A DNA stretch of 61,296 nucleotides. Origin: Anaerolineae bacterium. Its GTDB lineage: Bacteria > Chloroflexota > Anaerolineae > B4-G1 > DUEL01. The notes under the pieces are model-generated. The model did not search any database. It saw only the letters and a list, made by a program, of their open reading frames with translations, and was not told the DNA's origin. Positions within the stretch are counted from its first letter, which is position 1; each line of letters opens with the position of its first letter. Where the stretch lies: positions 1 to 61,296 of the forward strand of contig JBMFKS010000004.1 of assembly GCA_049972045.1 (NCBI GenBank), given 5' to 3'. Positions 2,576 through 55,220 of this stretch are shown here, in pieces. The position numbers were made by a program, and so were the translations under genes.

Positions 2576-3019
2576 ATGAACGCAGAATCCACTTCGCTCA
2601 TTGCCGCCCTTCAGGCCAGCGGTCACCGCATCACCCGCCAGCGGCGGGTCGTCCTGGAGGTGCTGGAAGAGAGCCGGGAACACCTGGACGCCGAAAGCCT
2701 GTATCAGAAAGCCCGTCAGCGGGCTCCGCGCATCAGTCTGGCGACTGTATACCGCACTGTCGCCGTTCTGAAGCAGATGGGACTGGTTGCTGAATACTCG
2801 CTGGGAGAGGAGCATGGACATTTTGAGGCCGTTCCGGAGATACCGCACTACCACTTTACCTGTCTCGGATGCGGGCAGGTGGTGGAGTTTGATGCCCCGC
2901 AGGTGGCCTTGGCGATTGAGGAACTGGCCGAACGGGAGGGCCTGGAAGTCTGTGCGGTCCAGTTCTCCCTCACCGGCTATTGCGCCCGCTGCCGAACCGG
3001 AGGAAGAGATGAGCCGTGA
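2576..3019 (+). CDS. fur: Fur-family metalloregulator
   Basis: 147 aa with RITRQRRVVLEVL, ISLATVYRTV, HGHF, HHYHFTCLGCG and CxxC at the C-terminus. It lies directly upstream of feoAB. Confidence 0.85.
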   Translation: MNAESTSLIAALQASGHRITRQRRVVLEVLEESREHLDAESLYQKARQRAPRISLATVYRTVAVLKQMGLVAEYSLGEEHGHFEAVPEIPHYHFTCLGCGQVVEFDAPQVALAIEELAEREGLEVCAVQFSLTGYCARCRTGGRDEP

Positions 3020-3269
3020 GCCTGCCCACCCTTCTTCCAACCCTGTCCCGCTGAGCGCGCTGCGGACCGGGGAGGTGGGAGTCGTCGCCGCCCTCTCCGG
3101 CGGTCACAGCCTGCGCAGCCGGATGCTCACCCTCGGCCTCACCCCCGGTGCTGAGGTGACTATCCTGCAGAACTACGGGCGCGGTCCGATGATTGTCCGG
3201 GTGCGGGATACTCGCGTGGCCCTGGGACGAGGGGAGGCCGGGAAAGTGCTTGTCCGGAGGAAGTCATGA
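3009..3269 (+). CDS. feoA: ferrous iron transport protein A
   Basis: ATG at 3009 follows GGAGGAAGAG. 86 aa including LSALRTGEVGVVAAL..LGLTPGAEVTILQNYGRGPMIVRVRDTRVALGRGEA (FeoA SH3-like domain). It overlaps the fur stop. Confidence 0.85.
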   Translation: MSREPAHPSSNPVPLSALRTGEVGVVAALSGGHSLRSRMLTLGLTPGAEVTILQNYGRGPMIVRVRDTRVALGRGEAGKVLVRRKS

Positions 3270-9550: not shown

Positions 9551-10660
9551 CTATCTGCGTTCCACCTTCAAAAACACCCTCCACCAGAGCCGCCGGAGCC
9601 CGGAGCGGAGCGCGGCCAGGGCGTAGCGGAGCCACCGCAGGAACCGCCGCCAGGCGGATACCGGCGCCGGCTGCGGAGACGTCCAGCGGATAACCGTCGC
9701 GCCCCAGGTCAGGCCGGCTCCGAAGCCCACGCAGACCACCCCGTCCCCCGGCTTCAGCCGCCCCTCCTCCACCGCCTCGCAGAGGGCAATGGGGATGGAC
9801 GCCGCCGAGGTGTTCCCATACCGCTCCAGATTGCTGTAAACCTTCTCCGGCGGGAGTTTCAGGTCCCGGACGGCGCTTTCTATGATGCGTCCGTTGGCCT
9901 GGTGGGGGATGAACAGGGCCACGTCGTCCAGGGAGAGGCCGGCCCGCTCCAGTGCCTGTCGGGTCGCCGCCGGGATAACCCGGACGGCGAAACGGAAGAC
10001 GTCCCGCCCCTGCATTTTGATGAAGTGCATCCGCTCCGCGACGGTCTGATGGGAGGCGGGATGGCGGCTCCCGCCTGCCGGGAGCATCAGCAGGTCACCG
10101 CCGGAGCCGTCGGCGCCCAGGGCGGTGGCCAGAATGCCACTGCCGTCAGGCCCGGCCCGCAGGACGACCGCGCCGGCGCCGTCGCCGAAGAGGACGCAGG
10201 TGTTGCGATCGGTCCAGTCGGTGATGCGGGAGAGGGTCTCGGCGCCGATGACCAGCGCGGTCTGGGCCGCGCCGGATTCTATCATCGCGGCGGCGACGCC
10301 CAGCGCGTAGACGAAGCCGGTGCAGCCCGCGGCCAGGTCAAAGGCGGCCGCGTGGCCGGCCCCCAGCGCGTCCTGCACCAGGCAGGCCGTGGCGGGGAAA
10401 GGGTAGTCCGGCGTCGCCGTGGCGACGATGATGAGGTCCACCTTCTCCGGCCCGATCCCGGCCCCCTCCAGCGCCCGCCGGGCGGCCTGGACGGCCATGG
10501 TCGCGGTCGTCTCGTTCTCCCCGGCGATGCGCCGCTCCCGAATGCCGGTGCGGGTAACGATCCACTCGTCCGAAGTGTCCACCATTCGGGAGAGGTCGTC
10601 GTTGGTCAGGACCCGCTGGGGGGTGTATTTGCCCCAGCCGACGATGTGGGCGCGCGTCAT
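9551..10660 (-). CDS. fabH: 3-oxoacyl-ACP synthase III with an approximately 40-aa basic amphipathic C-terminal tail
   Basis: Start MTRAHIVGWGKYTP at 10660 after AGGAGG. The fold ends at GLTWGATVIRW and the tail is TSPQPAPVSAWRRFLRWLRYALAALRSGLRRLWWRVFLKVERR. The ORF-track start at 10894 lies in repeat DNA. Confidence 0.9.
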   Translation of the reverse strand: MTRAHIVGWGKYTPQRVLTNDDLSRMVDTSDEWIVTRTGIRERRIAGENETTATMAVQAARRALEGAGIGPEKVDLIIVATATPDYPFPATACLVQDALGAGHAAAFDLAAGCTGFVYALGVAAAMIESGAAQTALVIGAETLSRITDWTDRNTCVLFGDGAGAVVLRAGPDGSGILATALGADGSGGDLLMLPAGGSRHPASHQTVAERMHFIKMQGRDVFRFAVRVIPAATRQALERAGLSLDDVALFIPHQANGRIIESAVRDLKLPPEKVYSNLERYGNTSAASIPIALCEAVEEGRLKPGDGVVCVGFGAGLTWGATVIRWTSPQPAPVSAWRRFLRWLRYALAALRSGLRRLWWRVFLKVERR

Positions 10661-12213: not shown

Positions 12214-12468
12214 GGTAGTGGTTTGTCAACAGCACTTTTGTGGGTCTTTGCGCCCTCCAGTAGGGCAACTGCTCGCAGTTGCCCTACGCCTTGGGGCCTG
12301 CATGGGCCCCTGGCCGCGTCGGCAATTCGGACCCATATAAACTTGACTGACCAGTAGGTCGGGATTGCCCATCCGACCTCCTCGCTCTACCGAATTGCCG
12401 GCGAGAGGGGTTACCGAGTTTCTGACTTGCGGGAATGCGTCCCCGCGCCGGGTGTACTCGTAAGCAAA
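12214..12468 (-). repeat. full MITE-2 copy (12214-12358, reverse) followed by family G/F repeat modules (12359-12468)
   Basis: TIRs are GGTAGTGGTTTGTCAA and CTTGACTGACCAGTAGG, with a central hairpin GTAGGGCAACTGCTCGCAGTTGCCCTAC. Module F (about 85 bp) recurs reversed at 54856-54940. Confidence 0.85.
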
Positions 12469-18692: not shown

Positions 18693-19055
18693 TTGACAAT
18701 TTCCCCAAACCGGCTATAATATCTCAAAGCCCGACGTGGGGCATAGGCCACAAGTCGGCAGTCAATAACAGAGCGACAACCTGAAGGTCCAACGTGTTGA
18801 CCGGGACGAGTACCGGCCTGAGAAGGCTTCAGAGAGGGAGGGTCGGAGGCTGAGAGCCCTCCCGCCGGACGGTCGGGAAAACCCCCCGGGAGCGGGCCCC
18901 GGAAAGGGGGGTTCCCCCGAGTATGGGGCTCCGGGCCAGGCCCGTTACAGCCTCAGAGGGCGGTCGGCGCCCCTTCCAATGGGCCGACCGAACCTGGGTG
19001 GAACCACGTGGGGATAAAGAAAACCCCCGCGCCCCAGGGCGCGGGGGTTTTTTTC
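18693..19055 (+). promoter_or_regulatory. promoter plus T-box riboswitch leader (Thr specifier ACC) of thrS
   Basis: TTGACA (18693-18698), 16 nt, TATAAT (18715-18720). Stem I has GACGAGUA and CAGAGAG. The specifier loop is GAAA-ACC-C (ACC at 18881-18883) and the T-box core is GGGUGGAACCACG (about 18996-19008). Terminator CCCCCGCGCCC..GGGCGCGGGGG plus T7 at 19024-19054. Confidence 0.85.
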
Positions 19056-19094
19056 GTTCCGCCCTGTATCGCGCACCTTGTATCCTCTCCCTAA

Positions 19095-19238
19095 CTTGAC
19101 ATTGTTAGATTCCAGGCCAAGTGTCATTGCGAGGAGCGGAGCGACGAAGCAATCTCCACCGTTACTTGCATTTGAAGGCGGGAGATTGCTTCGCTACGCT
19201 CGCAATGACATCCTTTGTTGGGCTATGACAGCGAATTT
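19095..19238 (+). repeat. MITE-D copy (GTCATTGCGAG...GAAGCAATCTCC long-hairpin element), right TIR truncated
   Basis: About 90% identical to the reverse complement of the full 157-bp copy at 54944-55100. It lies between the T-box terminator and the thrS SD. Confidence 0.85.
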
Positions 19239-19254
19239 AAAAAAGGAGGCCGAA

Positions 19255-21048
19255 ATGTCCGAACATACCCAAAACGACCATCTGCTGCGCATCCGCCACT
19301 CCGCGTCGCACGTGATGGCCCAGGCCGTCCTGGAGAAATTCCCGGGGGCCAAACTGGCCATCGGGCCAGCGATTGAGACCGGCTTCTACTACGACTTTGA
19401 CCTCCCCCGCCCGCTCACCCCGGAGGACCTGGCAGAGATTGAGGCCCGGATGCGGGAGATCATCGCCGAAGGGTACGACTTCGTCTACCAGGAGATCAGC
19501 GAGGAGGAGGCCCGCCGCCTCTTCGCCGACCAGCCCTACAAACTGGAACTGATAGAAGGCATCCTGGCAGGCGGCGTGGACGAAGACGGCAACCCCACCG
19601 AGGAGCGGCCCGTCCTCTCCATCTACCGCCACGGCCCCTTCGTGGACCTCTGCCGGGGGCCCCATGTCGCCAACACCCGGGAGATCAACCCGGACGCAGT
19701 GAAACTGCTCAGCGTCGCCGGGGCGTACTGGCGGGGGGACGAGCGGCGGCCCATGCTCCAGCGCATCTACGGCACCGCCTGGGAGACGCCGGAGGACCTG
19801 CAAGCCTACCTGGCCTGGCGGGAGGAGGTGGAGCGGCGGGACCACCGGCGGCTCATCAAGGAACTGGACCTCATCAGTTTCCACGAGGAGGGCGGCGCCG
19901 GCCTGGCCTACTGGCACCCCAAGGGAGGCCGCATCCGCCAAATCATTGAGGACCACTGGCGCGCCCGACACCGGGAGGGTGGCTACGAAATCGTCTATAC
20001 CCCCCACATCGGGCGGGCCCAACTCTGGGAACGTTCCGGACACCTTCAGTTCTACAAGGAGAACATGTATGCCCCCATAGACATTGAGGGGGTCCAGTAC
20101 TACCTGAAGCCGATGAACTGTCCCTTCCACATCCTCATCTACAAGACCCGGACCCGCTCCTACCGGGACCTGCCGCTACGCTGGGCGGAACTGGGGACGG
20201 TCTACCGCTTTGAGCGCAGCGGTGTCCTCCACGGTCTCCTGCGCGTGCGCGGCTTCACGCAGGACGACGCCCACATCTTCTGCACGCCGGAGCAGATAGA
20301 GGACGAAATTCTGGGCGTGCTGGACTTCAGCCTAAGCCTCCTGCGGGACTTCGGCTTTGAGGACTACCAGATAGAACTGAGCGTGCGCGACCCCCGAATG
20401 CCGGAGAAGTACGCGGGGAGCGATGAGATGTGGGAACAGGCGGAGCGCTCCCTGGTCAAGGCGCTGGAGGCCCGGAATCTCCCCTACAAGCGCATGGAGG
20501 GCGAGGCCGTCTTCTACGGGCCCAAGATTGACATCAAAATCAAAGATGCGCTGGGCCGGGCCTGGCAGTGCACGACCATCCAGTTTGACTTCAACGTGCC
20601 GGAGCGGTTTGACCTGACCTTCCGGGACCGGGACGGGCAGGAGCGGCGGCCCTACATGGTCCATCGGGCGCTCTTGGGGAGTCTGGAGCGCTTCTTCGGC
20701 GTACTGGTGGAGCACTACGGCGGCGCGTTCCCGGTCTGGCTGGCGCCCGTCCAGGCGGTGGTCATCCCCATCGCGGACCGGCATGGGGACTACGCCTGGG
20801 AGGTGGCGCGAAGGCTGAAGGCGGCCAGTCTGCGGGTGGAGGTCAACGACTCCCCTGAGCGGATGCAGGCCAAAATCCGCGATGCTCAACTGGAGAAAAT
20901 CCCCTATATGCTGGTCGTGGGCGACCGGGAGATGCAGAACGGGGAGGTCAACCTGCGCCGCCGGGACGGCGAGGTTCCCGGGGCGATGTCGGTGGAGGCC
21001 TTCATCGCGATGGCCCAGGAAGCCATCCGGGAGCGACGGTTGCTATAG
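19255..21048 (+). CDS. thrS: threonyl-tRNA synthetase (no N-terminal TGS domain)
   Basis: ATG at 19255 follows AGGAGG (19244-19249); 597 aa. Begins at the editing domain (RHSASHVMAQAV..GFYYDFDL). The ORF-track start at 19078 lies in MITE DNA. Confidence 0.92.
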   Translation: MSEHTQNDHLLRIRHSASHVMAQAVLEKFPGAKLAIGPAIETGFYYDFDLPRPLTPEDLAEIEARMREIIAEGYDFVYQEISEEEARRLFADQPYKLELIEGILAGGVDEDGNPTEERPVLSIYRHGPFVDLCRGPHVANTREINPDAVKLLSVAGAYWRGDERRPMLQRIYGTAWETPEDLQAYLAWREEVERRDHRRLIKELDLISFHEEGGAGLAYWHPKGGRIRQIIEDHWRARHREGGYEIVYTPHIGRAQLWERSGHLQFYKENMYAPIDIEGVQYYLKPMNCPFHILIYKTRTRSYRDLPLRWAELGTVYRFERSGVLHGLLRVRGFTQDDAHIFCTPEQIEDEILGVLDFSLSLLRDFGFEDYQIELSVRDPRMPEKYAGSDEMWEQAERSLVKALEARNLPYKRMEGEAVFYGPKIDIKIKDALGRAWQCTTIQFDFNVPERFDLTFRDRDGQERRPYMVHRALLGSLERFFGVLVEHYGGAFPVWLAPVQAVVIPIADRHGDYAWEVARRLKAASLRVEVNDSPERMQAKIRDAQLEKIPYMLVVGDREMQNGEVNLRRRDGEVPGAMSVEAFIAMAQEAIRERRLL

Positions 21049-25662: not shown

Positions 25663-27021
25663 TTACCCCTCCACCACCGGCAGGTCCTTCAGCGCCTCCA
25701 GCACCCGCTCCGCCGGGTATTCGTAGTTCTCCAGTTTCCCGGCGAAGTAACTCTCGTAGGCCCCCATGTCAAAGTGGCCATGCCCGCTGAAGTTGAAGAG
25801 GATGACCCTCTTCTCTCCCGCCTCGCGCGCGGCCAAGGCTTCATCTATCGCCGCCCGGATGGCATGGGCCGTCTCGGGCGCGGGGATGAAGCCCTCGGTG
25901 CGGGCAAACAGGACCGCCGCCTCAAAGACCGTCAGTTGGGGATAGGCGACCGGTTCTATATAGCCGTGCCGATGGAGCGCGGAGACGAGAGGGGCCATGC
26001 CGTGATAGCGCAGTCCTCCCGCATGGATGCCTGCCGGGATGAAAGTGTGCCCCAGCGTGTCCATCTTGGCGATGGGGGCCAGGTGGGCCGTATCGCCGTA
26101 ATCGTAGGCGTAGACCCCCCGGGTCATGCTGGGGCAGGCGGTGGGCTCCACAGCAACGAAGCGGGTGGAGGCGCCGTTCTGGAGCCGGTCCCGCAGGAAG
26201 GGGAAAGCCAGGCCGGCGAAATTGCTCCCCCCGCCCACGCAGCCGATGACCACGTCGGGGTATTCGCCCGCCATCTCCATCTGGAGCCGCGCCTCTTCGC
26301 CGATGACCGTCTGGTGGAGCAGGACGTGGTTGAGGACGCTGCCCAGGGAGTACTTGGTGTCGTCGTGGGTGGCGGCGACCTCCACGGCCTCGCTGATGGC
26401 GATCCCCAGACTGCCCGGCGAATCGGGGTCCCGCTCCAGGATGGATTGCCCCGAACGGGTCTCCGGGCTGGGGCTGGGGACGACGCGCGCCCCCCATGCC
26501 TCCATCAACACCCGGCGGTAGGGCTTCTGGTAGTAACTGACCTTCACCATATAGACCCCACACTCCATCCCGAAGAGGTTGCAGGCGAAGGCCAGGGCGC
26601 TCCCCCACTGCCCGGCGCCCGTTTCGGTGACCAGCCGTTTCACCCCGGCCTCCTTGCTGTAGAAGGCCTGAGCGACAGCGGTGTTGGGCTTGTGGCTACC
26701 CGGCGGGCTGGCCCCTTCGTACTTGTAGTAGATGTGGGCAGGAGTATCCAGGGCCTGCTCCAGTCGCCGGGCCCGGACCAGGGGGGTGGGCCGCCAGAGC
26801 CGGTAGACCTCCCGTACCGGCTCCGGTATCTCCACGTACCGCTCCCGCGTCTCCTCCTGCTCTATCAGCGCATCGCAGAACAGGGGTGGCGGGAGACGGG
26901 TCGGCTCGCGGGTCACCGGATGCAAAAGCGGCGGGACCTCAAAGGGTATATCGGCAACGATGTTGTACCATGCCTTCGGCAGGCGGTCGGGGGGAAGCAG
27001 GAAGCGGTTCTGTTCTTTCAT
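25663..27021 (-). CDS. trpB: TrpB2-type tryptophan synthase beta-like PLP enzyme
   Basis: 452 aa beginning [26 protein letters not shown], with [27 protein letters not shown]. Confidence 0.88.
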
Positions 27022-27073
27022 CTCACACCTCCTTGATTTGGTAGATTAGTAGATTGGTTGTAACTATTCAGGG

Positions 27074-27316
27074 GTCATTGCGAGCCGCCCGCAGGGCGGC
27101 GAAGCAATCTCGGTAGAGCGTCCTGGCGATTGCTTCGGGCGCTCCGCGCCCTCGCAATGACAGACGGGAGGGTAGTGGTTTGTCAAGTTTATGCTTATGG
27201 GTCCGAATTGCCGGCGCGGCCAGGGGCCCATGCAGGCCACAAGTAGGGCAACTGCTCACAGTTGCCCTACTGGAGGGCGCAAAGACCCACAAAAGTGCTG
27301 TTGACAAACCAGTAGG
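27074..27316 (+). repeat. GTCATTGCGAG-family hairpin (27074-27161) plus full MITE-2 copy (27171-27316)
   Basis: TIRs are GGTAGTGGTTTGTCAA and TTGACAAACCAGTAGG, with central hairpin GTAGGGCAACTGCTCACAGTTGCCCTAC. Confidence 0.88.
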
Positions 27317-28073
27317 CTGAGCAGTTACGATTAGTTGATGGTAGGTGGGTCAATCCGGTTGCTTCGCGGACCAGTCGCGTCGTCTCTTCTGCTTCGGCGC
27401 GCATGCGTTCGTTCCCGGCCGCCAGGATTTCCTCCACCAACCCTGGCCGGTCCTCATAGCAGGCCCGACGCTCGCGGATGGGCTCCAGGAAGCCGTTGAG
27501 CGCCGCTGCCAGCCGCTCCTTGACCTCCACATCGCCCACTTTGCCGCTTCTGTAGCGCGCCTTCAGGTCCTCCACCTCCTCTCTGTTGGGATTGAAGAAA
27601 TCGTGATAGATAAAAACGGGATTGCCCTCCACGCGTCCGGGCACATCGGCCCGGATCCGCTGAGGGTCGGTGACCATGCGGCGAACCTTCTCCCGCACCG
27701 TTTCGGCGTCGTCGGACAGGTAGATAACGTTGCCCAGGGACTTGCTGGCTTTGGCCTGCCCGTCTGTTCCCACCAGTACCTCGCCGACCAGCGCTTCTGG
27801 TTCGGGGAAGACCTCTCCGTAGAGATAGTTGAATCGTCGGGCGACCTCGCGGGCAACCTCCACGTGGGCCTCGTTATCCCGGGCCACCGGCACCAGATGG
27901 GCGCGGGGGAGAAGGATGTCGGCAGCCTGCAGCACGTGCAGGTCGGCGATGATGAAAAAGCAATCGTACTCATCTTGCAACCGCACCCGGTTTGCCCGGC
28001 TGCCCACATAGTGGCCCAGGTGCAGTCTGCCTGTGGGACGGTCGCCGGTCAGGATGCGCTTTCGGGATTTCAT
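27267..28073 (-). CDS. trpS: tryptophanyl-tRNA synthetase homolog, internally deleted and degenerate (possible pseudogene or neofunctionalised paralog)
   Basis: 268 aa. HLGH is present. IADLH joins directly to VLQAADILL, so about 80 aa of canonical TrpRS are absent. GEDQ is ARDN and KMSKS is KASKS. The last 16 codons and the stop lie inside MITE-2. Confidence 0.75.
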
Positions 28074-28089
28074 TGCTCTCTCCTCCTGG

Positions 28090-28494
28090 AAACAAAAAAC
28101 GCCCGCCCCTTTGCCAGGACGGGCGTTTTTCCCGTGGTGCCACCCCGCTGAGGGGCCTTTCCCCGGGAACAAAAACGCGCCGGTGACGGCGCGTTGGGGG
28201 GAAAAGCCAGCCTCACTCTTTCGCGGGTACGGCGCCGACCGGATACGGTCGGGTCCATACCCTCAGCCCGGATAACGGTGGCGACTCCGGCCCGGACTAC
28301 TACCTGACCGGCCTGTGGGCGGGTCAGGGTTCGGCGGGCGACTCCCAGGCCCATTCGGCATCGGCGCTGGTATCGGGCTTCCAGCCTCCGGCCCGACTCT
28401 CTGGAACCCCGCTACGATGCCTACTCTTCCTGATCTTCGTCTTTGGGGTATCGGTTGTTGGATATCTTATACCACAACACTGAGAAACTGTCAA
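28090..28494 (-). promoter_or_regulatory. promoter plus T-box riboswitch leader (Trp specifier UGG) of the trpS homolog
   Basis: Minus strand TTGACA (28494-28489), 17 nt, TATAAG (28471-28466). Contains GAAGAGUAGG and CCAGAGAG. The specifier is GAA-UGG-G (28353-28351) and the T-box core is GGGGUGGCACCACGGG (28146-28131). Terminator plus U6 at about 28126-28093. Confidence 0.8.
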
Positions 28495-29788: not shown

Positions 29789-30148
29789 CTATCCCAGAAT
29801 CCGAGACAGTGTCGCGTAGACGTCCTGGAGCGGGATTCCCCGCTCCCGGGCAATGCGGGCGCAGTCCTCATACTCCGGCGACGCGGCAACCCTTCGCCCG
29901 TCCAGCCACTTCTCCTTCACCCGCACCGTCCCCCATTCCGTCTCCACCGATACCTCCCGCCGGTCGGCGACAACGCGCGCCACGGGCCGCACCCGCACGC
30001 CCAGCGTCGGGGTCTCCCGCAGGATGAGACCCGCCAGAGCATCGGCCTGATCCGGGCGGGCCAGGGGGAAGTGATCGCGCACCCGCACCTGACGCAATCC
30101 CCACTCCCGGCGCAGGACCTCCTCGGCGGCATCCACCCGCGCCTCCCG
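29789..30148 (-). pseudogene. larE-fragment / larC C-terminal remnant (5'-truncated scar)
   Basis: The open frame starts immediately after the nuclease stop. AEEVLRREWGLRQVRVRDHFPLAR resembles the LarE C-region, fused to the LarC C-terminus ETPTLGVRVRPV...VRVKEK...SPEYEDCARIARERGIPLQDVY. There is no N-terminal catalytic part. Confidence 0.55.
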
Positions 30149-30574
30149 TCACAACGTGCGGGTATTGGCCGCAGCGATGAAGGCTTCCAGGGTTACAATT
30201 TTGACCAGATCGCTATAACGTAGATATTTACTCAATCCCCCACCCACAAAGAAGTCACGCAAACGCCACCCTGGCCCGCCAAGGACCAGATAGGCTTTGT
30301 GATAACCGCCTCCCGAGGACAAAATCGCCTCCGCCAAACACATCGCTTCAAAGGGGATCTTTTGTTCAGCAGTTCCAGAGACCTGCTGCCATTTCAAAGA
30401 GATCAGGTATCTCTTCCCCTCCGAGTCCTCGGCCACCACATCCACAATGTGCTTGCCTCCCCCCAAACGCTCGCCAACATGGACGCGTTTCTTGTAGCGA
30501 TACCCCCCATGTTCCAGCGCAGGGAGAATCATATTTTCCAGCACTCTTCCGGTTGAAGTGTCCCGCGGATTCAT
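30149..30574 (-). CDS. small PD-(D/E)XK-type nuclease (candidate restriction endonuclease)
   Basis: 141 aa with E in VLENMI, D in HIVDVV and SLK in YLISLKWQQVSGTAEQK. ATGA overlap with the upstream methyltransferase. G+C is visibly lower than in the flanks. Confidence 0.55.
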   Translation of the reverse strand: MNPRDTSTGRVLENMILPALEHGGYRYKKRVHVGERLGGGKHIVDVVAEDSEGKRYLISLKWQQVSGTAEQKIPFEAMCLAEAILSSGGGYHKAYLVLGGPGWRLRDFFVGGGLSKYLRYSDLVKIVTLEAFIAAANTRTL

Positions 30575-32145
30575 ACGGATTCCCTCACATAGATAAGAAG
30601 ATATTTATGAATAACTGCCAGATGGTTCCCCCCGGAAACAGGGGGAGTCTCTTCCGGCACGACGATGACGATCTCCTTCAAAGCAAGATGCCGCTCCCGT
30701 CCGAGATCTTCCCAAAGCAACAAAGCGGCAGGCACGAGATCGCCCCTGGGAGAGCGAAAATCCTTCGCTTCTATCACCAGGTATCCGTCGGGAGGGAGCC
30801 GAAGAATCGCCTGCCGGAGAAGATCTCCGATGCAGCGCCTGCAACCGGCGAAGATCGCTTCATCCATTTCCTCCGGCAGCCGAATCCACCACAGGTTTGC
30901 CGGCCCAACCGACAAAGGAGCCGCTTCTGAAATCCCTCCACCGCCCGTCAGATGGATCTCAACCAGTTCGCCCGCACCCTCAGCAAACCTTTGGAAGAGA
31001 TTCCGTCTAACTTCTTCTTCCATCCGCGCCAACGGGAACACCCAAACCGTCATCGCTTCCAGGGGTTCCTCTCTCGCGGGCCAAACAGCCCCCTGGACCG
31101 TCCGGCAGGACATAGAGGCTTCCCAGAGGGAAAGTTGCTCCTGCACTCCCGATCCAGCCGGTTTCTCAAAAACAGGGAGGTACTCGTGTGCCAGCAGCAA
31201 AAAGTTATATTGAACACTCCGGCTGTACCAGAAACCCGTTGCCCGGCAGTTGTGTTGTCGTTTGATGATCAATTCCTTCAGGCGAAAGCCGACATCTAAG
31301 AACACCCGGATCACCATAAAGCCAACCGGCACAACCCGCTTAGACTGGCGGGCATCTCCCACGAGGATCGCGCACTTCCCGCCGGGCTTCAAGACCCGGA
31401 GGCTTTCCCGGGCCACCTTCCGCATCTCTTGCAAAAACTCTGGTACGGTAAGGGCAGACAGGTCACCGGGAAGCCCGCTACTATATCGGATGATCCTCGC
31501 GTAAGGGGGATGGGCACAGATCAGATCAACGCTGTTATCGGAAATCCCGGAAAGATCCCGCGCATCTCCCACTTCCACCATCGGCTCGTAGATCTCTTCT
31601 CCCGTGATCGGAGCAGGAGGGGAGAAACCCAAATTCCGCCGGGTGAGGGAGACCGCGGCAGGATTGATATCCCGGGCTATGCAGCGGCGGCCCAATAACT
31701 TGGCTTCTACCGCGGTTGTTCCGCCTCCCACAAAATAGTCCAGGATCAGATCACCGGGCCGGGAATACCGCAGGATGATATTTCGCGGAATATAAGGCGA
31801 CCAATTCCCCCGGTAACGCCCATCGTGTGTGGCCCAACGCCCCCGCTCCTTGAAACTCCAGACCGTAGTGGTTTCCAGGCGAAAGTCCGATGGCTGCCAG
31901 CGTCGGATTCGCGCGGCAGGGCGGAGATCGCCGATGTTCGCCCCGCATGCCCGGGTAATCATCCGCTGAAGGGCACCAAAAGAGAGACCGTAGCGGCGAC
32001 CAATCTCTACGTCCGAGAGCCCCTTCTCTTTGTCAGATATGACCGCGCGAGAGAGTTCTTCCTCGCCGTGGACGGTTAGAAGATGGTCGCGTATCTTTCC
32101 CTCCGGCGACTGCCCACACAGAGGGCATTGGATGGGCTCTTTCAT
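30571..32145 (-). CDS. DNA methyltransferase (N6/N4 type) with N-terminal Zn-ribbon/HTH and a duplicated, degenerate C-terminal MTase-like domain
   Basis: Start MKEPIQCPLCG at 32145. Motif I is ILDYFVGGGTTAVEAKLLGRRCIARDIN and motif IV is ICAHPPYA. A second copy from about aa 375 (TVWVFP.., EIHLTGGGG, WWIRLPEE, LRLPPDGYLVIEAKD) lacks both catalytic motifs. Confidence 0.7.
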   Translation of the reverse strand: MKEPIQCPLCGQSPEGKIRDHLLTVHGEEELSRAVISDKEKGLSDVEIGRRYGLSFGALQRMITRACGANIGDLRPAARIRRWQPSDFRLETTTVWSFKERGRWATHDGRYRGNWSPYIPRNIILRYSRPGDLILDYFVGGGTTAVEAKLLGRRCIARDINPAAVSLTRRNLGFSPPAPITGEEIYEPMVEVGDARDLSGISDNSVDLICAHPPYARIIRYSSGLPGDLSALTVPEFLQEMRKVARESLRVLKPGGKCAILVGDARQSKRVVPVGFMVIRVFLDVGFRLKELIIKRQHNCRATGFWYSRSVQYNFLLLAHEYLPVFEKPAGSGVQEQLSLWEASMSCRTVQGAVWPAREEPLEAMTVWVFPLARMEEEVRRNLFQRFAEGAGELVEIHLTGGGGISEAAPLSVGPANLWWIRLPEEMDEAIFAGCRRCIGDLLRQAILRLPPDGYLVIEAKDFRSPRGDLVPAALLLWEDLGRERHLALKEIVIVVPEETPPVSGGNHLAVIHKYLLIYVRESV

Positions 32146-32221
32146 TTCCAACTTCCGTCCTCCCCCCACCACCGGAATCAAGAAGCAACAGGGCACTTCT
32201 GGCCGGTATGCCTGGGGTCAA

Positions 32222-41375: not shown

Positions 41376-41520
41376 CCTACTGGTCAGTCCAGTTTATACT
41401 TATGGGTCCGAATGGCCGACGCGGCCAGAGGCCTATGCAGGCCACCAGTAGGGCAACTGCGAGCAGTTGCCCTACTGGAGGGCGCAAAGACCCTAAAAGT
41501 GCTGTTGACAAACCACTACC
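41376..41520 (+). repeat. full MITE-2 copy
   Basis: CCTACTGGTCAGTCCAG...GTAGGGCAACTGCGAGCAGTTGCCCTAC...GCTGTTGACAAACCACTACC. It ends 22 nt before the next start codon. Confidence 0.88.
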
Positions 41521-47394: not shown

Positions 47395-48711
47395 ATGCCC
47401 ACGGGATGGAGTCGGATCTACGAGAGCAAAGTGACGACGGCGGAAGAGGCCGTTCAGGTCATCAAACACGGCGACCGCATTTTTCTGACCGGCAACTGCA
47501 GCGTCCCCCAGGTCCTGATGAAGGCACTGGTGGAGCGGGCTCGCGAACTGGAGAATGTAGAAATCTGCCATGCCTTGACCATTGGGGCCAGCGACTACGT
47601 CGCGCCGGAGATGGAAGGGCACATTCGTGCCAACGCGCTCTTCATCGGCCCCAACGTCCGCAAGGCCGTGCAGGAGGGACGGGCCGATTTCACCCCCGTC
47701 CTCCTCTCCGAATTCACCCTCCTTTTCCAGAAAGGCATCCTGCCGGTGGATGTCGCCTTCGTCCACCTCTCCCCGCCCGACGAGCACGGCTTCTGCTCCT
47801 ACGGCATTGAGACCGGCTTGACCAAGACGCCGGCCGAATCGGCGCGGATCATCATCGCCGAAGTCAACCCCAACATGCCTCGCTGCTTAGGCGACAGTTT
47901 CATCCACATCAGTCGGATAGATTCCATCGTGCCGGTAGATTACCCACTGATGGAACTGCCAATGGGTAGCGGCGAGCCGTCGGAGGTGGTCCTGCGCATT
48001 GCCCAGTACATCGCCGAATTGGTCCCCGATGGCGCGACGATGCAGATGGGCATCGGCGAGATTCCGGACGCGGTGTTGCGCTTCCTCCGCCACAAAAAGG
48101 ACCTGGGCGTCCACACCGAACTGTTCTCCGATGGGGTGATTGACCTGGTGGAGGCCGGGGTCATCACCAACGCCCGCAAAACCCTCCATCCGGGCAAGAT
48201 CATCGCCGGATTCATGCTGGGGACGCGGCGTCTCTACGAGTGGGCCCACGATAACCCCATCATTGAACTGCGCCGCACCGAGTACGTCAACGACCCCTTC
48301 GTCATCGCCCAGAACTACCGGCAGGTGGCCATCAACTCGGCCATAGAGGTGGACCTGACGGGGCAGGTCTGCGCCGATTCCATCGGCCCCAAACTCTACA
48401 GCGGCGTCGGCGGGCAACTGGACTTCATCTACGGCGCGTCCCGCTCCGAGGGCGGGGTGCCCATCATCGCCCTCCCCAGCACGACGACGCTGAAGGACGG
48501 GACGGTGGTCAGCCGGATCGTCCCGATGCTCAAGCCGGGCGCGGGGGTCGTCACCACCCGCTACCATGTCCACTACGTGGTCACCGAATACGGGGTGGCG
48601 GACCTCTACGGCAAGACCATCCGGCAGCGGGCCCAGGCCCTCATTCGCATCGCCCATCCGGACTTCCGGGAGGAACTGACCCGGGCGGCGAAAGAGTTGA
48701 ACTATCTGTAG
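47395..48711 (+). CDS. acetyl-CoA hydrolase/transferase family protein (4-hydroxybutyrate / succinyl-CoA:acetate CoA-transferase-like)
   Basis: 438 aa with family blocks GIGEIPDAV, SGVGGQLDF and VTEYGVADLYGK. The stop codon TAG (48709-48711) lies inside the MITE-2 TIR. Confidence 0.85.
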   Translation: MPTGWSRIYESKVTTAEEAVQVIKHGDRIFLTGNCSVPQVLMKALVERARELENVEICHALTIGASDYVAPEMEGHIRANALFIGPNVRKAVQEGRADFTPVLLSEFTLLFQKGILPVDVAFVHLSPPDEHGFCSYGIETGLTKTPAESARIIIAEVNPNMPRCLGDSFIHISRIDSIVPVDYPLMELPMGSGEPSEVVLRIAQYIAELVPDGATMQMGIGEIPDAVLRFLRHKKDLGVHTELFSDGVIDLVEAGVITNARKTLHPGKIIAGFMLGTRRLYEWAHDNPIIELRRTEYVNDPFVIAQNYRQVAINSAIEVDLTGQVCADSIGPKLYSGVGGQLDFIYGASRSEGGVPIIALPSTTTLKDGTVVSRIVPMLKPGAGVVTTRYHVHYVVTEYGVADLYGKTIRQRAQALIRIAHPDFREELTRAAKELNYL

Positions 48712-48852
48712 TGGTCAGTCAAGTTTATGCTTATGGGTCCGAATTGCCGACGCGGCCATGGGCCCATACAGGCCATAAGTAGGGCAACTGCGAGCAGTTG
48801 CCCTACTGGAGGGCGCAAAGACCCAAAAAAGTGCTGGTGACAAACCAGTAGG
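48708..48852 (+). repeat. full MITE-2 copy
   Basis: GTAGTGGTCAGTCAAG...GTAGGGCAACTGCGAGCAGTTGCCCTAC...GCTGGTGACAAACCAGTAGG. Confidence 0.88.
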
Positions 48853-51781: not shown

Positions 51782-51853
51782 ATAGGGCAACTGCTCGCAG
51801 TTGCCTACTGGAGGGCGCAAAGACCCCCAAAAGTGCTGTTGACAAACCACTAA
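51782..51853 (+). repeat. partial MITE-2 (hairpin plus right arm only)
   Basis: ATAGGGCAACTGCTCGCAGTTGCCTAC then TGGAGGGCGCAAAGACC..GCTGTTGACAAACCACTAAC. It ends 16 nt before the prfA ATG. Confidence 0.85.
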
Positions 51854-54855: not shown

Positions 54856-55220
54856 GCATTGCGAGTACGCCAGGCGCGGGGCGCATTCCCGCAACTCAGA
54901 AACTCGGTCACCCCTCCCGCCGGCAATTCGGTAGAGGGGGTAGCTCGACATTGTTAAATTCGCTGTCATAGCCCAACAAAGGATGTCATTGCGAGCGGAG
55001 CGAAGCAATCTCCCGCCTTCAAATGCAAGTAACGGTGGAGATTGCTTCGTCGCTCCGCTCCTCGCAATGACACTGGGCCTGGAATCGAACAATGTCAAGG
55101 TAGTGGTCAGTCAAGTTTATCCTTATGGGTCCGAATGGCCGACGCGGCCAGGGGCCCATGCAGGCCACAAGGCAAAAAGCCGGCGTGGGGCAACTGTGAA
55201 CAGTTGCCCTACTGGAGGGA
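54856..55220. repeat. nested repeat array: family F (54856-54940), full 157-bp MITE-D (54944-55100), MITE-2 lacking its right arm (55099-55220)
   Basis: MITE-D has TIRs CTCGACATTGTTAAATTC and GAATCGAACAATGTCAAGG and an internal long hairpin GTCATTGCGAGCGGAGCGAAGCAATCTCC / GGAGATTGCTTCG..CTCGCAATGAC. Confidence 0.88.

Follow-up and report, generated by a model that had tools for sequence, protein, structure and literature searches.

This analysis concerns trpS*, a shortened homologue of the gene for tryptophanyl-tRNA synthetase (TrpRS), in the genome of an Anaerolineae bacterium (GCA_049972045.1, contig JBMFKS010000004.1, positions 1-61,296; this whole stretch of 61,296 nt is referred to as the window). 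On the minus strand, a promoter-like site and a T-box leader with a UGG specifier are followed by trpS* and then by trpB2. The locus probably represents a recently pseudogenised trpS within a T-box(Trp)-trpB2 unit that is still functional, as judged from comparative sequence evidence. Two lesions in trpS*, and the states of the same locus in related lineages, support this reading. Together they form a natural series, intact, frameshifted, internally deleted and excised, in which the T-box appears to outlive its first synthetase gene and to be kept for the downstream tryptophan-supply gene.

The two genes, and the main landmarks of trpS*, are as follows (loci of relatives carry L numbers, and homologous proteins P numbers):

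27267..28073, minus strand: trpS*, 268 codons and a stop, made up of TrpRS residues 1-46, then 135-333, and a 23-residue foreign tail
28071..28086, minus strand: Shine-Dalgarno GGAGGAG and ATG start of trpS*, from the sequence
27930..27938, minus strand: deletion junction, where the His46 codon (27938..27936) is joined to GTGCTG (27935..27930)
27336..27338, minus strand: lost stop codon of trpS*, reading TCA (TAA in L003, TGA in L013)
25663..27021, minus strand: trpB2, encoding a stand-alone TrpB-like enzyme of the pyridoxal phosphate type, 452 aa, intact

The original prediction of a trpS homologue ending at 27267 on the minus strand was confirmed. The frame runs from an ATG at 28073, behind an intact GGAGGAG Shine-Dalgarno that had likewise been noted, to 27267, and its product was recognised as a TrpRS by PF00579 (E 2e-49, 168.9 bits against a cut-off of 21.1 in the profile search) and by TIGR00233 (200.5 bits, above the curated cut-off of 176.75). 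Each profile aligned in two distinct blocks, between which some 80-90 of its positions were skipped. The predicted internal gap is real, although not of about 80 residues: compared with 10 close full-length homologues, exactly 88 residues are missing after ADLH, giving ADLH / VLQAADILL, and the alignment to the solved TrpRS structure 6ncr jumps from about residue 59 to 143. The lost segment amounts to 264 bp, or 88 codons (residues 47-134), and is in frame. Relatives carry a 6-bp Val-Leu codon repeat, GT(G/T)CT(G/T), at both of its ends (in L003, GTTCTG at 10037-10042 and GTGCTT at 10301-10306), and the two blocks in which blastn aligned the window with L003 overlap by 6 nt. On the evidence of these alignments, the deletion arose at the 6-bp microhomology, and the frame was kept automatically because both repeat copies share one frame. 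The gap was unique among the 120 closest database homologues, almost all of which are 329-360 residues long.

In the AlphaFold2 model of the full-length homologue P0002, the lost segment comprises strand 81-85, helices within the range 54-120 and the opening turns of helix 128-142. As judged by what is known of TrpRS structure, this corresponds to all of connective peptide 1 (CP1), which includes the dimer interface, together with a single Rossmann-sheet strand and the beginning of the specificity helix. With these 88 residues absent, the trpS* product does not contain a complete Rossmann catalytic domain with CP1 and a full specificity helix. Another Anaerolineae TrpRS, P0054 (on a JGI contig of 1667 bp), has a 31-residue gap within CP1 (IFVHS / RDARLE), which may reflect another natural lesion of CP1 or else a fault of assembly.

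The second lesion, which went unmentioned in the original prediction, lies at the 3' end. The proteins of relatives end in ...GLT(H/S)LP, followed by TAA or TGA, and alignment of these codons indicates that the natural stop of trpS* is lost by a point change. Translation would therefore run on for 23 codons and end in a miniature inverted-repeat transposable element (MITE). The tail draws 7 codons from diverged spacer and 16-17 from a 148-bp MITE-like repeat, up to a TAG at 27269..27267, in agreement with the earlier view that a MITE supplies the last 16 codons and the stop. Because both the deletion and the stop loss are present, trpS* carries two independent lesions.

The exact TrpB2 protein and its 90% cluster placed the locus among hot-spring Anaerolineae, with one cluster member labelled Thermoflexales. 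T-box-trpS is common in Anaerolineae, and trpS* is an orthologue of the ancestral T-box-controlled trpS of this group; the status of paralogue, which had been assigned to it at first, was not shown. Within the clade of the window, taken as trpB2 DNA identity of at least 88%, the locus occurs in these states:

L013, L011, L012: intact T-box-trpS-trpB2
L003-L010, L105, L106: 2-nt frameshift at codon 41 of trpS (10 fetched contigs, at least 9 samples)
Window, L001, L002: 264-bp deletion and stop loss
L097-L103, L184-L194: no trpS by tblastn (18 fetched loci, at least 4 lineages)
L097 3567-4001, L103 3553-4001, L184-L194: leader-trpB2 junctions

The outgroups L095, L014 and L093 also keep an intact T-box-trpS-trpB2. 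For the frameshift allele 18 contigs were read, and the 10 fetched loci that carry it are identical in this respect (10/10). L003 (10009-10036) reads TTC TTT C ATT GCC against TTC TTT ATC ATT GCC, and the gene is split into open reading frames of 52 aa and 299 aa. A programmed +1 frameshift in this sister lineage, where a slip at UUU C would restore the frame, was considered and dropped, there being no nearby stimulatory Shine-Dalgarno-like sequence or slow codon. The trpS-less loci include the metagenome-assembled genomes (MAGs) GCA_014360895.1, GCA_052745555.1, GCA_052743575.1 and GCA_052744035.1. Of the 17 whose sequence was examined, 16 have trpB2 directly behind the leader, which is 87-93% identical to that of the window. 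The junction always begins after ...GUU(U)CCA of the terminator tail, beyond which the number of CA-rich repeats varies. In L186 (156-2501), an IS110-family transposase gene lies between leader and trpB2, which are about 2 kb apart, and in L185 (about 2440-2470), a sibling strain, 22 nt are inserted at this site in what resembles a footprint.

In a trpB2 tree, the frameshift lineage was sister to a trpS-less group (synonymous divergence, dS, 0.18), the window fell nearest to a different trpS-less lineage (dS 0.31), and L013, with trpS intact, was basal; trpS-less and broken-trpS lineages were interleaved. Neighbour-joining bootstrap values were unreliable, and distances and dS were relied on instead. 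The leader has changed far more slowly than the silent sites of trpB2. Its core is 94% identical between the window and L003 or L097 and 98% identical between L003 and L097, against trpB2 dS values of 0.36 and 0.18 for the same pairs, which makes it about 5x slower, trpS-less lineages included. The ratio of nonsynonymous to synonymous divergence (dN/dS) was 0.04-0.05 for trpB2 and 0.09-0.11 for trpS in pairwise comparisons, with branch-specific trpS values of about 0.13 (window), 0.09 (frameshift lineage) and 0.07 (intact lineage). At about 0.1, the trpS ratio implies that the lesions are recent. At columns with a conservation of 95% or more (120 homologues), the product of trpS* deviates only twice, as intact homologues typically do. 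This, with the low dN/dS, argues that selection maintained trpS almost up to the time of each lesion. In this clade, trpS behaves like a gene that is of use but can be dispensed with.

Lineages that lack trpS altogether are present in many samples. Since a TrpRS is essential for life, the clade must have another, one that replaced the ancestral enzyme. By parsimony, the genome of the window would hold a second TrpRS as well. Searches of four contigs (those of P0009, P0019, P0114 and P0090) revealed no second copy: the first three carry orthologous trpS-trpB2 operons of other genomes, while P0090 is the trpS of another MAG, with no trpB2 in the fetched flank. Genome and metagenome scans for trpS gave mainly distant orthologues among the matches listed, and among the 120 best database homologues no other protein was more than 82% identical to the trpS of the clade.

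The leader region has three parts, the last nested in the second:

28466..28494, minus strand: promoter-like site, with -35 TTGACA (28494..28489), a 17-nt spacer, -10 TATAAG (28471..28466), and TG before the -10
28087..28461, minus strand: T-box(Trp) leader, with a full-model match to RF00230 at 28446..28112 (60.2 bits, E 3.8e-12)
28174..28195, minus strand: GC-rich terminator-like hairpin, then UUUUUGUU, nested in Stem III, upstream of the T-box sequence and antiterminator

Both hexamers of the promoter-like site are kept in L003 and L103 (leader alignment A2). A strict consensus promoter scan did not list the site because the last base of its -10 is G. The 'good promoter' first described is thus present, as TTGACA, 17 nt and TATAAG, and is conserved in relatives, but it did not pass the strict scan. 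The predicted UGG-specifier T-box was supported by the full-length RF00230 match and by its individual elements. The specifier position in Stem I reads GAA-UGG-G (UGG at 28353..28351), the T-box sequence GGGUGGCACCACGGG lies at 28146..28131 with a UGGC bulge, and in the predicted fold a terminator hairpin of 15-16 bp (about 28126..28100) is followed by UUUUUUGUUU, with the U-run at 28099..28090. The motif GAA-UGG-purine matched in 9 of 12 scanned trpS or trpB2 leaders, GAAUGGGCC is read by all leaders of the window clade and close relatives (7/7), and GAATGGGCC and GGTGGCACCACG are invariant across the clade leaders. Conservation shows the leader to be intact, at the level of sequence, in its promoter-like site, UGG-specifier Stem I, UGGC bulge and terminator/antiterminator. 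Its score falls under the Rfam gathering score of 93 because Stems II and III hold long insertions; the orthologous leaders of other Anaerolineae reach 85-102 bits with RF00230. The hairpin at 28174..28195 is perfect (ACGCGCCG-UCAC-CGGCGCGU), lies in the long Stem III of the fold, and was the only terminator-like site listed by a consensus scan. It is kept in 6/6 leaders of alignment A2 and could be a pause site or a second checkpoint.

A default Rfam scan of the window listed no T-box because the T-box leaders of this lineage are generally under threshold. A second one is present at 18788-19039 on the plus strand (75 bits, E 3.6e-16, also under the gathering score), upstream of thrS (19078-21048), and its homologue in L003 (19492-19102) has an ACC-type specifier region. 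In L103, a strong T-box with an AUC-like specifier (2841-3112, minus strand, 104.5 bits) lies a short way upstream of the Trp leader, next to a gene for a class IV aminotransferase. It is on the opposite strand, and its orientation relative to the called gene looks odd.

Between trpS* and trpB2, and elsewhere in the window, the following elements were recognised:

27172..27319, no strand assigned: MITE-like repeat, about 148 bp, with terminal inverted repeats of about 14 bp and consensus TAGTGGTCAGTCAAG ... TTGACAAACCACTA
48708-48852, 12216-12356, 41378-41518, 55099-55219: further MITE copies, with partial ones at 51783-51852 and 2399-2481
27074..27162, no strand assigned: second small palindromic element (GTCATTGCGAG ... 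CTCGCAATGAC), inserted in the trpS-trpB2 spacer
27022..27065, minus strand: CA-rich spacer native to the locus (AACCAAUCUACUAAUCUACCA), which contains the trpB2 Shine-Dalgarno AAGGAGG and has homologues in the spacers of L003, L097 and L103

The first of these is short, non-coding and multi-copy, and it has terminal inverted repeats, as is usual for a MITE. At least 5 copies besides 27172-27319 are present in the window, about one per 9 kb, and there is a further copy elsewhere in L001. Members contain an internal perfect hairpin (GTAGGGCAACTGC...GCAGTTGCCCTAC), and the flanks of five copies showed no clear common target-site duplication. The palindromic element gave a very stable hairpin when 27345..27010 was folded (z = -7.1). 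Both insertions are absent from the L003, L013, L097 and L103 spacers. A consensus scan of the inserted repeats found neither a promoter of trpB2's own nor a terminator. The CA-rich spacer is built of repeat units (AACCAAUCUACCAU), 1-4 per lineage (window 27022-27065, L003 10903-10981, L097 3937-4000), which occur specifically in the window clade, with none in L095 or L093. The spacer might offer ribosomes an unstructured place to land.

As predicted, trpB2 lies downstream on the same strand, starting 245 nt after trpS*. Its product matched NF009057 with 718 bits (cut-off 366) over profile positions 2-440 of 441, and TIGR01415 with 643 bits, and it is 96-98% identical to the protein of relatives. 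The TrpB2 family has been proposed to make Trp from indole. Among 80 genome loci, trpB2 adjoins trpS in 9, and the adjacency was also seen in L093, L095 and L195. In the supplement of one paper, trpB2 (K06001) is listed next to trpS (K01867) in Thermoflexus hugenholtzii JAD2 (PMC8129789).

Taken together, these data suggest the following history and mechanism. An ancestral Anaerolineae operon, T-box(Trp)-trpS-trpB2, would have passed into a Thermoflexales-related lineage in which trpS became dispensable. There, a 264-bp microhomology deletion removed residues 47-134, and a later point change destroyed the stop, so that translation now ends in a MITE that landed in the spacer. Uncharged tRNA-Trp would stabilise the antiterminator and prevent termination, and RNA polymerase would read through trpS* and some 245 nt of inserted repeats. 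trpB2 would then be translated from its own Shine-Dalgarno, and its product would make Trp from indole when Trp is scarce, while a second TrpRS gene elsewhere in the genome would do the charging. The original prediction offered three readings. A decaying gene whose leader now mainly serves trpB2 is strongly supported by the relatives in which the leader is joined to trpB2 and trpS is gone or frameshifted. A recent deletion is supported by the modest dN/dS of the window branch and the few deviations at conserved columns, and the two are mutually compatible. The third, a minimalist TrpRS-derived protein with a new role, is unlikely in view of the stop loss, the drop in AlphaFold2 confidence in the catalytic core, and the severe impairment of engineered CP1-less TrpRS.

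Several observations weigh against a pseudogene within a working T-box-trpB2 unit. No second trpS was found in the 61-kb window by tblastn with a full-length relative and an approximate Bacillus stearothermophilus TrpRS as queries, and the dispensability of trpS is deduced from comparison among lineages. Outside its two lesions trpS* looks healthy, with a dN/dS of about 0.1 and just the 2 conserved-column deviations, and with frame, Shine-Dalgarno and start codon intact, its product is probably still made. Very stable MITE hairpins would lie in the path of the proposed read-through into trpB2. Finally, a Stem II indel in the leader groups the lineages differently from the trpB2 tree, a conflict that points to recombination and leaves the number of independent losses uncertain, at 3 to 5; counting deletions by their junction sequences meets the same disagreement between leader and trpB2 phylogenies, and CA-rich repeat numbers that vary.

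The best surviving alternative, though an unlikely one, is that the CP1-less protein is still useful, either as a natural 'urzyme + anticodon-binding domain' TrpRS or as a Trp- or tRNA-binding protein induced through the T-box when Trp runs short. The deletion keeps the frame exactly, and start, Shine-Dalgarno, the HIGH signature (HLGH, residues 18-21, nearly invariant in family alignments), KASKS and the whole anticodon-binding domain are kept, with no excess of substitutions at conserved sites.

The original prediction had seen eroded catalytic signatures in ARDN and KASKS, and an extra residue at the latter. Neither survived, because the comparison had been made with the wrong TrpRS subfamily. 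KASKS is the KMSKS-type loop in 90 of the 120 closest homologues (KMSKS in 28), DNEAH occurs in 90/120 and GEDQ in 0/120, VA(R/K)DNEAH and KASKS are invariant in close full-length relatives, and no extra residue was found at the loop relative to 6ncr or family members. The best matches among solved structures were 6ncr (E 4.5e-93) and 1yi8 (E 2.6e-62); 1yi8 and 2a4m are Deinococcus radiodurans TrpRS II. The xDNEAH motif is common to the window protein, the Anaerolineae homologues and 6ncr, which reads GKDNEAH at the position compared with GEDQ, whereas 6ncr and 1yi8 have KMSKS in place of KASKS. The window protein differs further from 6ncr in lacking about residues 60-142 of that structure and in its foreign C-terminal tail. 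At their C-termini, many Anaerolineae TrpRS of the subfamily (P0003-P0120) have a conserved ...PGL(I/V)(Y/F)C tail of about 17 extra residues, which the Thermoflexales-clade proteins P0002, P0100 and P0009 lack.

AlphaFold2 was run on the window protein and on P0002 with the same 43-sequence alignment, with these results (pLDDT, predicted local distance difference test; pTM, predicted template modelling score):

Window protein, 268 aa: mean pLDDT 63.4, pTM 0.50, residues 1-113 at pLDDT 27-57, anticodon-binding domain at 80-95
Full-length P0002, 333 aa: mean pLDDT 88.2, pTM 0.87, residues 1-100 at pLDDT 84-97

Confidence in the anticodon-binding domain of the window protein is thus high, in favour of a useful product, while its catalytic half scores poorly and the prediction has lost the two later strands of the sheet. 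The deletion also exceeds the engineered excision of CP1 by a few residues on each side, presumably 44-126 against 47-120 in Bacillus stearothermophilus numbering. Engineered Bacillus stearothermophilus TrpRS without CP1 ('urzyme + ABD', ABD being the anticodon-binding domain) is slowed about 1e5-fold and loses nearly all Trp/Tyr discrimination (PMC5272822, PMC4082485), yet it keeps measurable activity (PMC5272822), and the 46-residue N-terminal piece of the window protein has the length of the protozyme. By model and analogy, any trpS* product would be misfolded or, at best, about 1e5-fold impaired and non-specific. Loss of function is what we infer from the model, not what it demonstrates, since AlphaFold2 confidence is not a measurement of stability. 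Against a useful protein, moreover, the deletion occurs in one lineage only, its frame was kept automatically by the repeats, and a 23-residue tail from spacer and MITE replaces the lost stop. The only single-nucleotide polymorphism (SNP) within trpS* between two strains turns a nearly invariant Met into Thr in the window, the other strain keeping Met, and sister lineages frameshift trpS or delete it outright. In its narrower form the proposal is slightly more doubtful still. Here the 268-residue protein, still expressed through the T-box, would be nature's equivalent of the engineered 'urzyme + ABD' and would have selectable activity; such activity might be weak or relaxed-specificity aminoacylation, or binding of Trp or tRNA-Trp.

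An assembly artefact or a minority variant as the source of the deletion, with a full-length trpS in the true population and a 6-bp repeat collapsed by the assembler, is very improbable. The assemblies are metagenomic and the junction does lie at a short direct repeat, but 6 bp is far too short to collapse an assembly graph, and no full-length protein closer than 93% identity was found among 5.8 billion proteins. The same junction is present in the window, L001 (JGI 3300041917) and L002 (GCA_049700735.1), a separately assembled strain that is set apart from the window by one gene island and, over 10.9 kb, by 20 SNPs; it is therefore not an artefact. Collinearity with L001, otherwise 99.8% identical, ends at 30064. 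Just past this point, at 30149-32196 on the minus strand, are a PD-(D/E)XK nuclease gene and an N6/N4 DNA methylase gene, likely a type II restriction-modification pair, in what looks like a strain-specific island.

Least probable of all is that trpS* is the organism's sole TrpRS and active enough for growth: the subfamily is widespread as a T-box-controlled gene in Anaerolineae, to our knowledge it is the only TrpRS type in chlamydiae, and no other trpS was found in the window, but close relatives from many samples with trpS fully excised must have another TrpRS, CP1 loss is very costly in engineered enzymes, and the sister lineage is frameshifted in every fetched contig.

Public records name the trpS* protein 'tryptophan--tRNA ligase'. 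They should mark it as the product of a probable pseudogene, and trpS* should not be taken for the TrpRS when the metabolism of these hot-spring Anaerolineae is reconstructed.

Decaying aminoacyl-tRNA synthetase genes and T-box-controlled tryptophan-supply genes are both of known kinds, and the case is no surprise to specialists. T-box leaders (RF00230) are known for aminoacyl-tRNA synthetase and tryptophan genes, such as trpS and the rtpA-ycbK operon of Bacillus subtilis, and a T-box that senses uncharged tRNA-Trp and drives a Trp-supply gene follows established logic. The bulge C of UGGC would pair with the discriminator G73 of bacterial tRNA-Trp. The window leader shares with these systems the specifier codon in Stem I, the UGGN bulge, the terminator/antiterminator pair and the U-run. 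It differs in scoring under the gathering threshold, in its insertions, which include the terminator-like hairpin in Stem III, and in that the first gene it once controlled is now broken, with the leader directly preceding trpB2 in relatives. The TrpB2 protein is an ordinary member of the stand-alone TrpB2 (TrpEb_2) enzymes, a full-length family match encoded apart from trpA; the differences are the T-box(Trp) control and the ancestral linkage to trpS in this Anaerolineae group. With the modules of the Carter laboratory (protozyme, 46 aa; urzyme, 130 aa), the window protein has in common an N-terminal fragment that is also 46 residues long, and with 'urzyme + ABD' an architecture of first crossover, no CP1, second crossover with a KMSKS-type loop, and anticodon-binding domain. 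Unlike the engineered form, it arose by a spontaneous microhomology deletion, without redesign of the linker. For the modularity of aminoacyl-tRNA synthetases, trpS* thus offers a natural, spontaneous CP1 excision that is directly testable.

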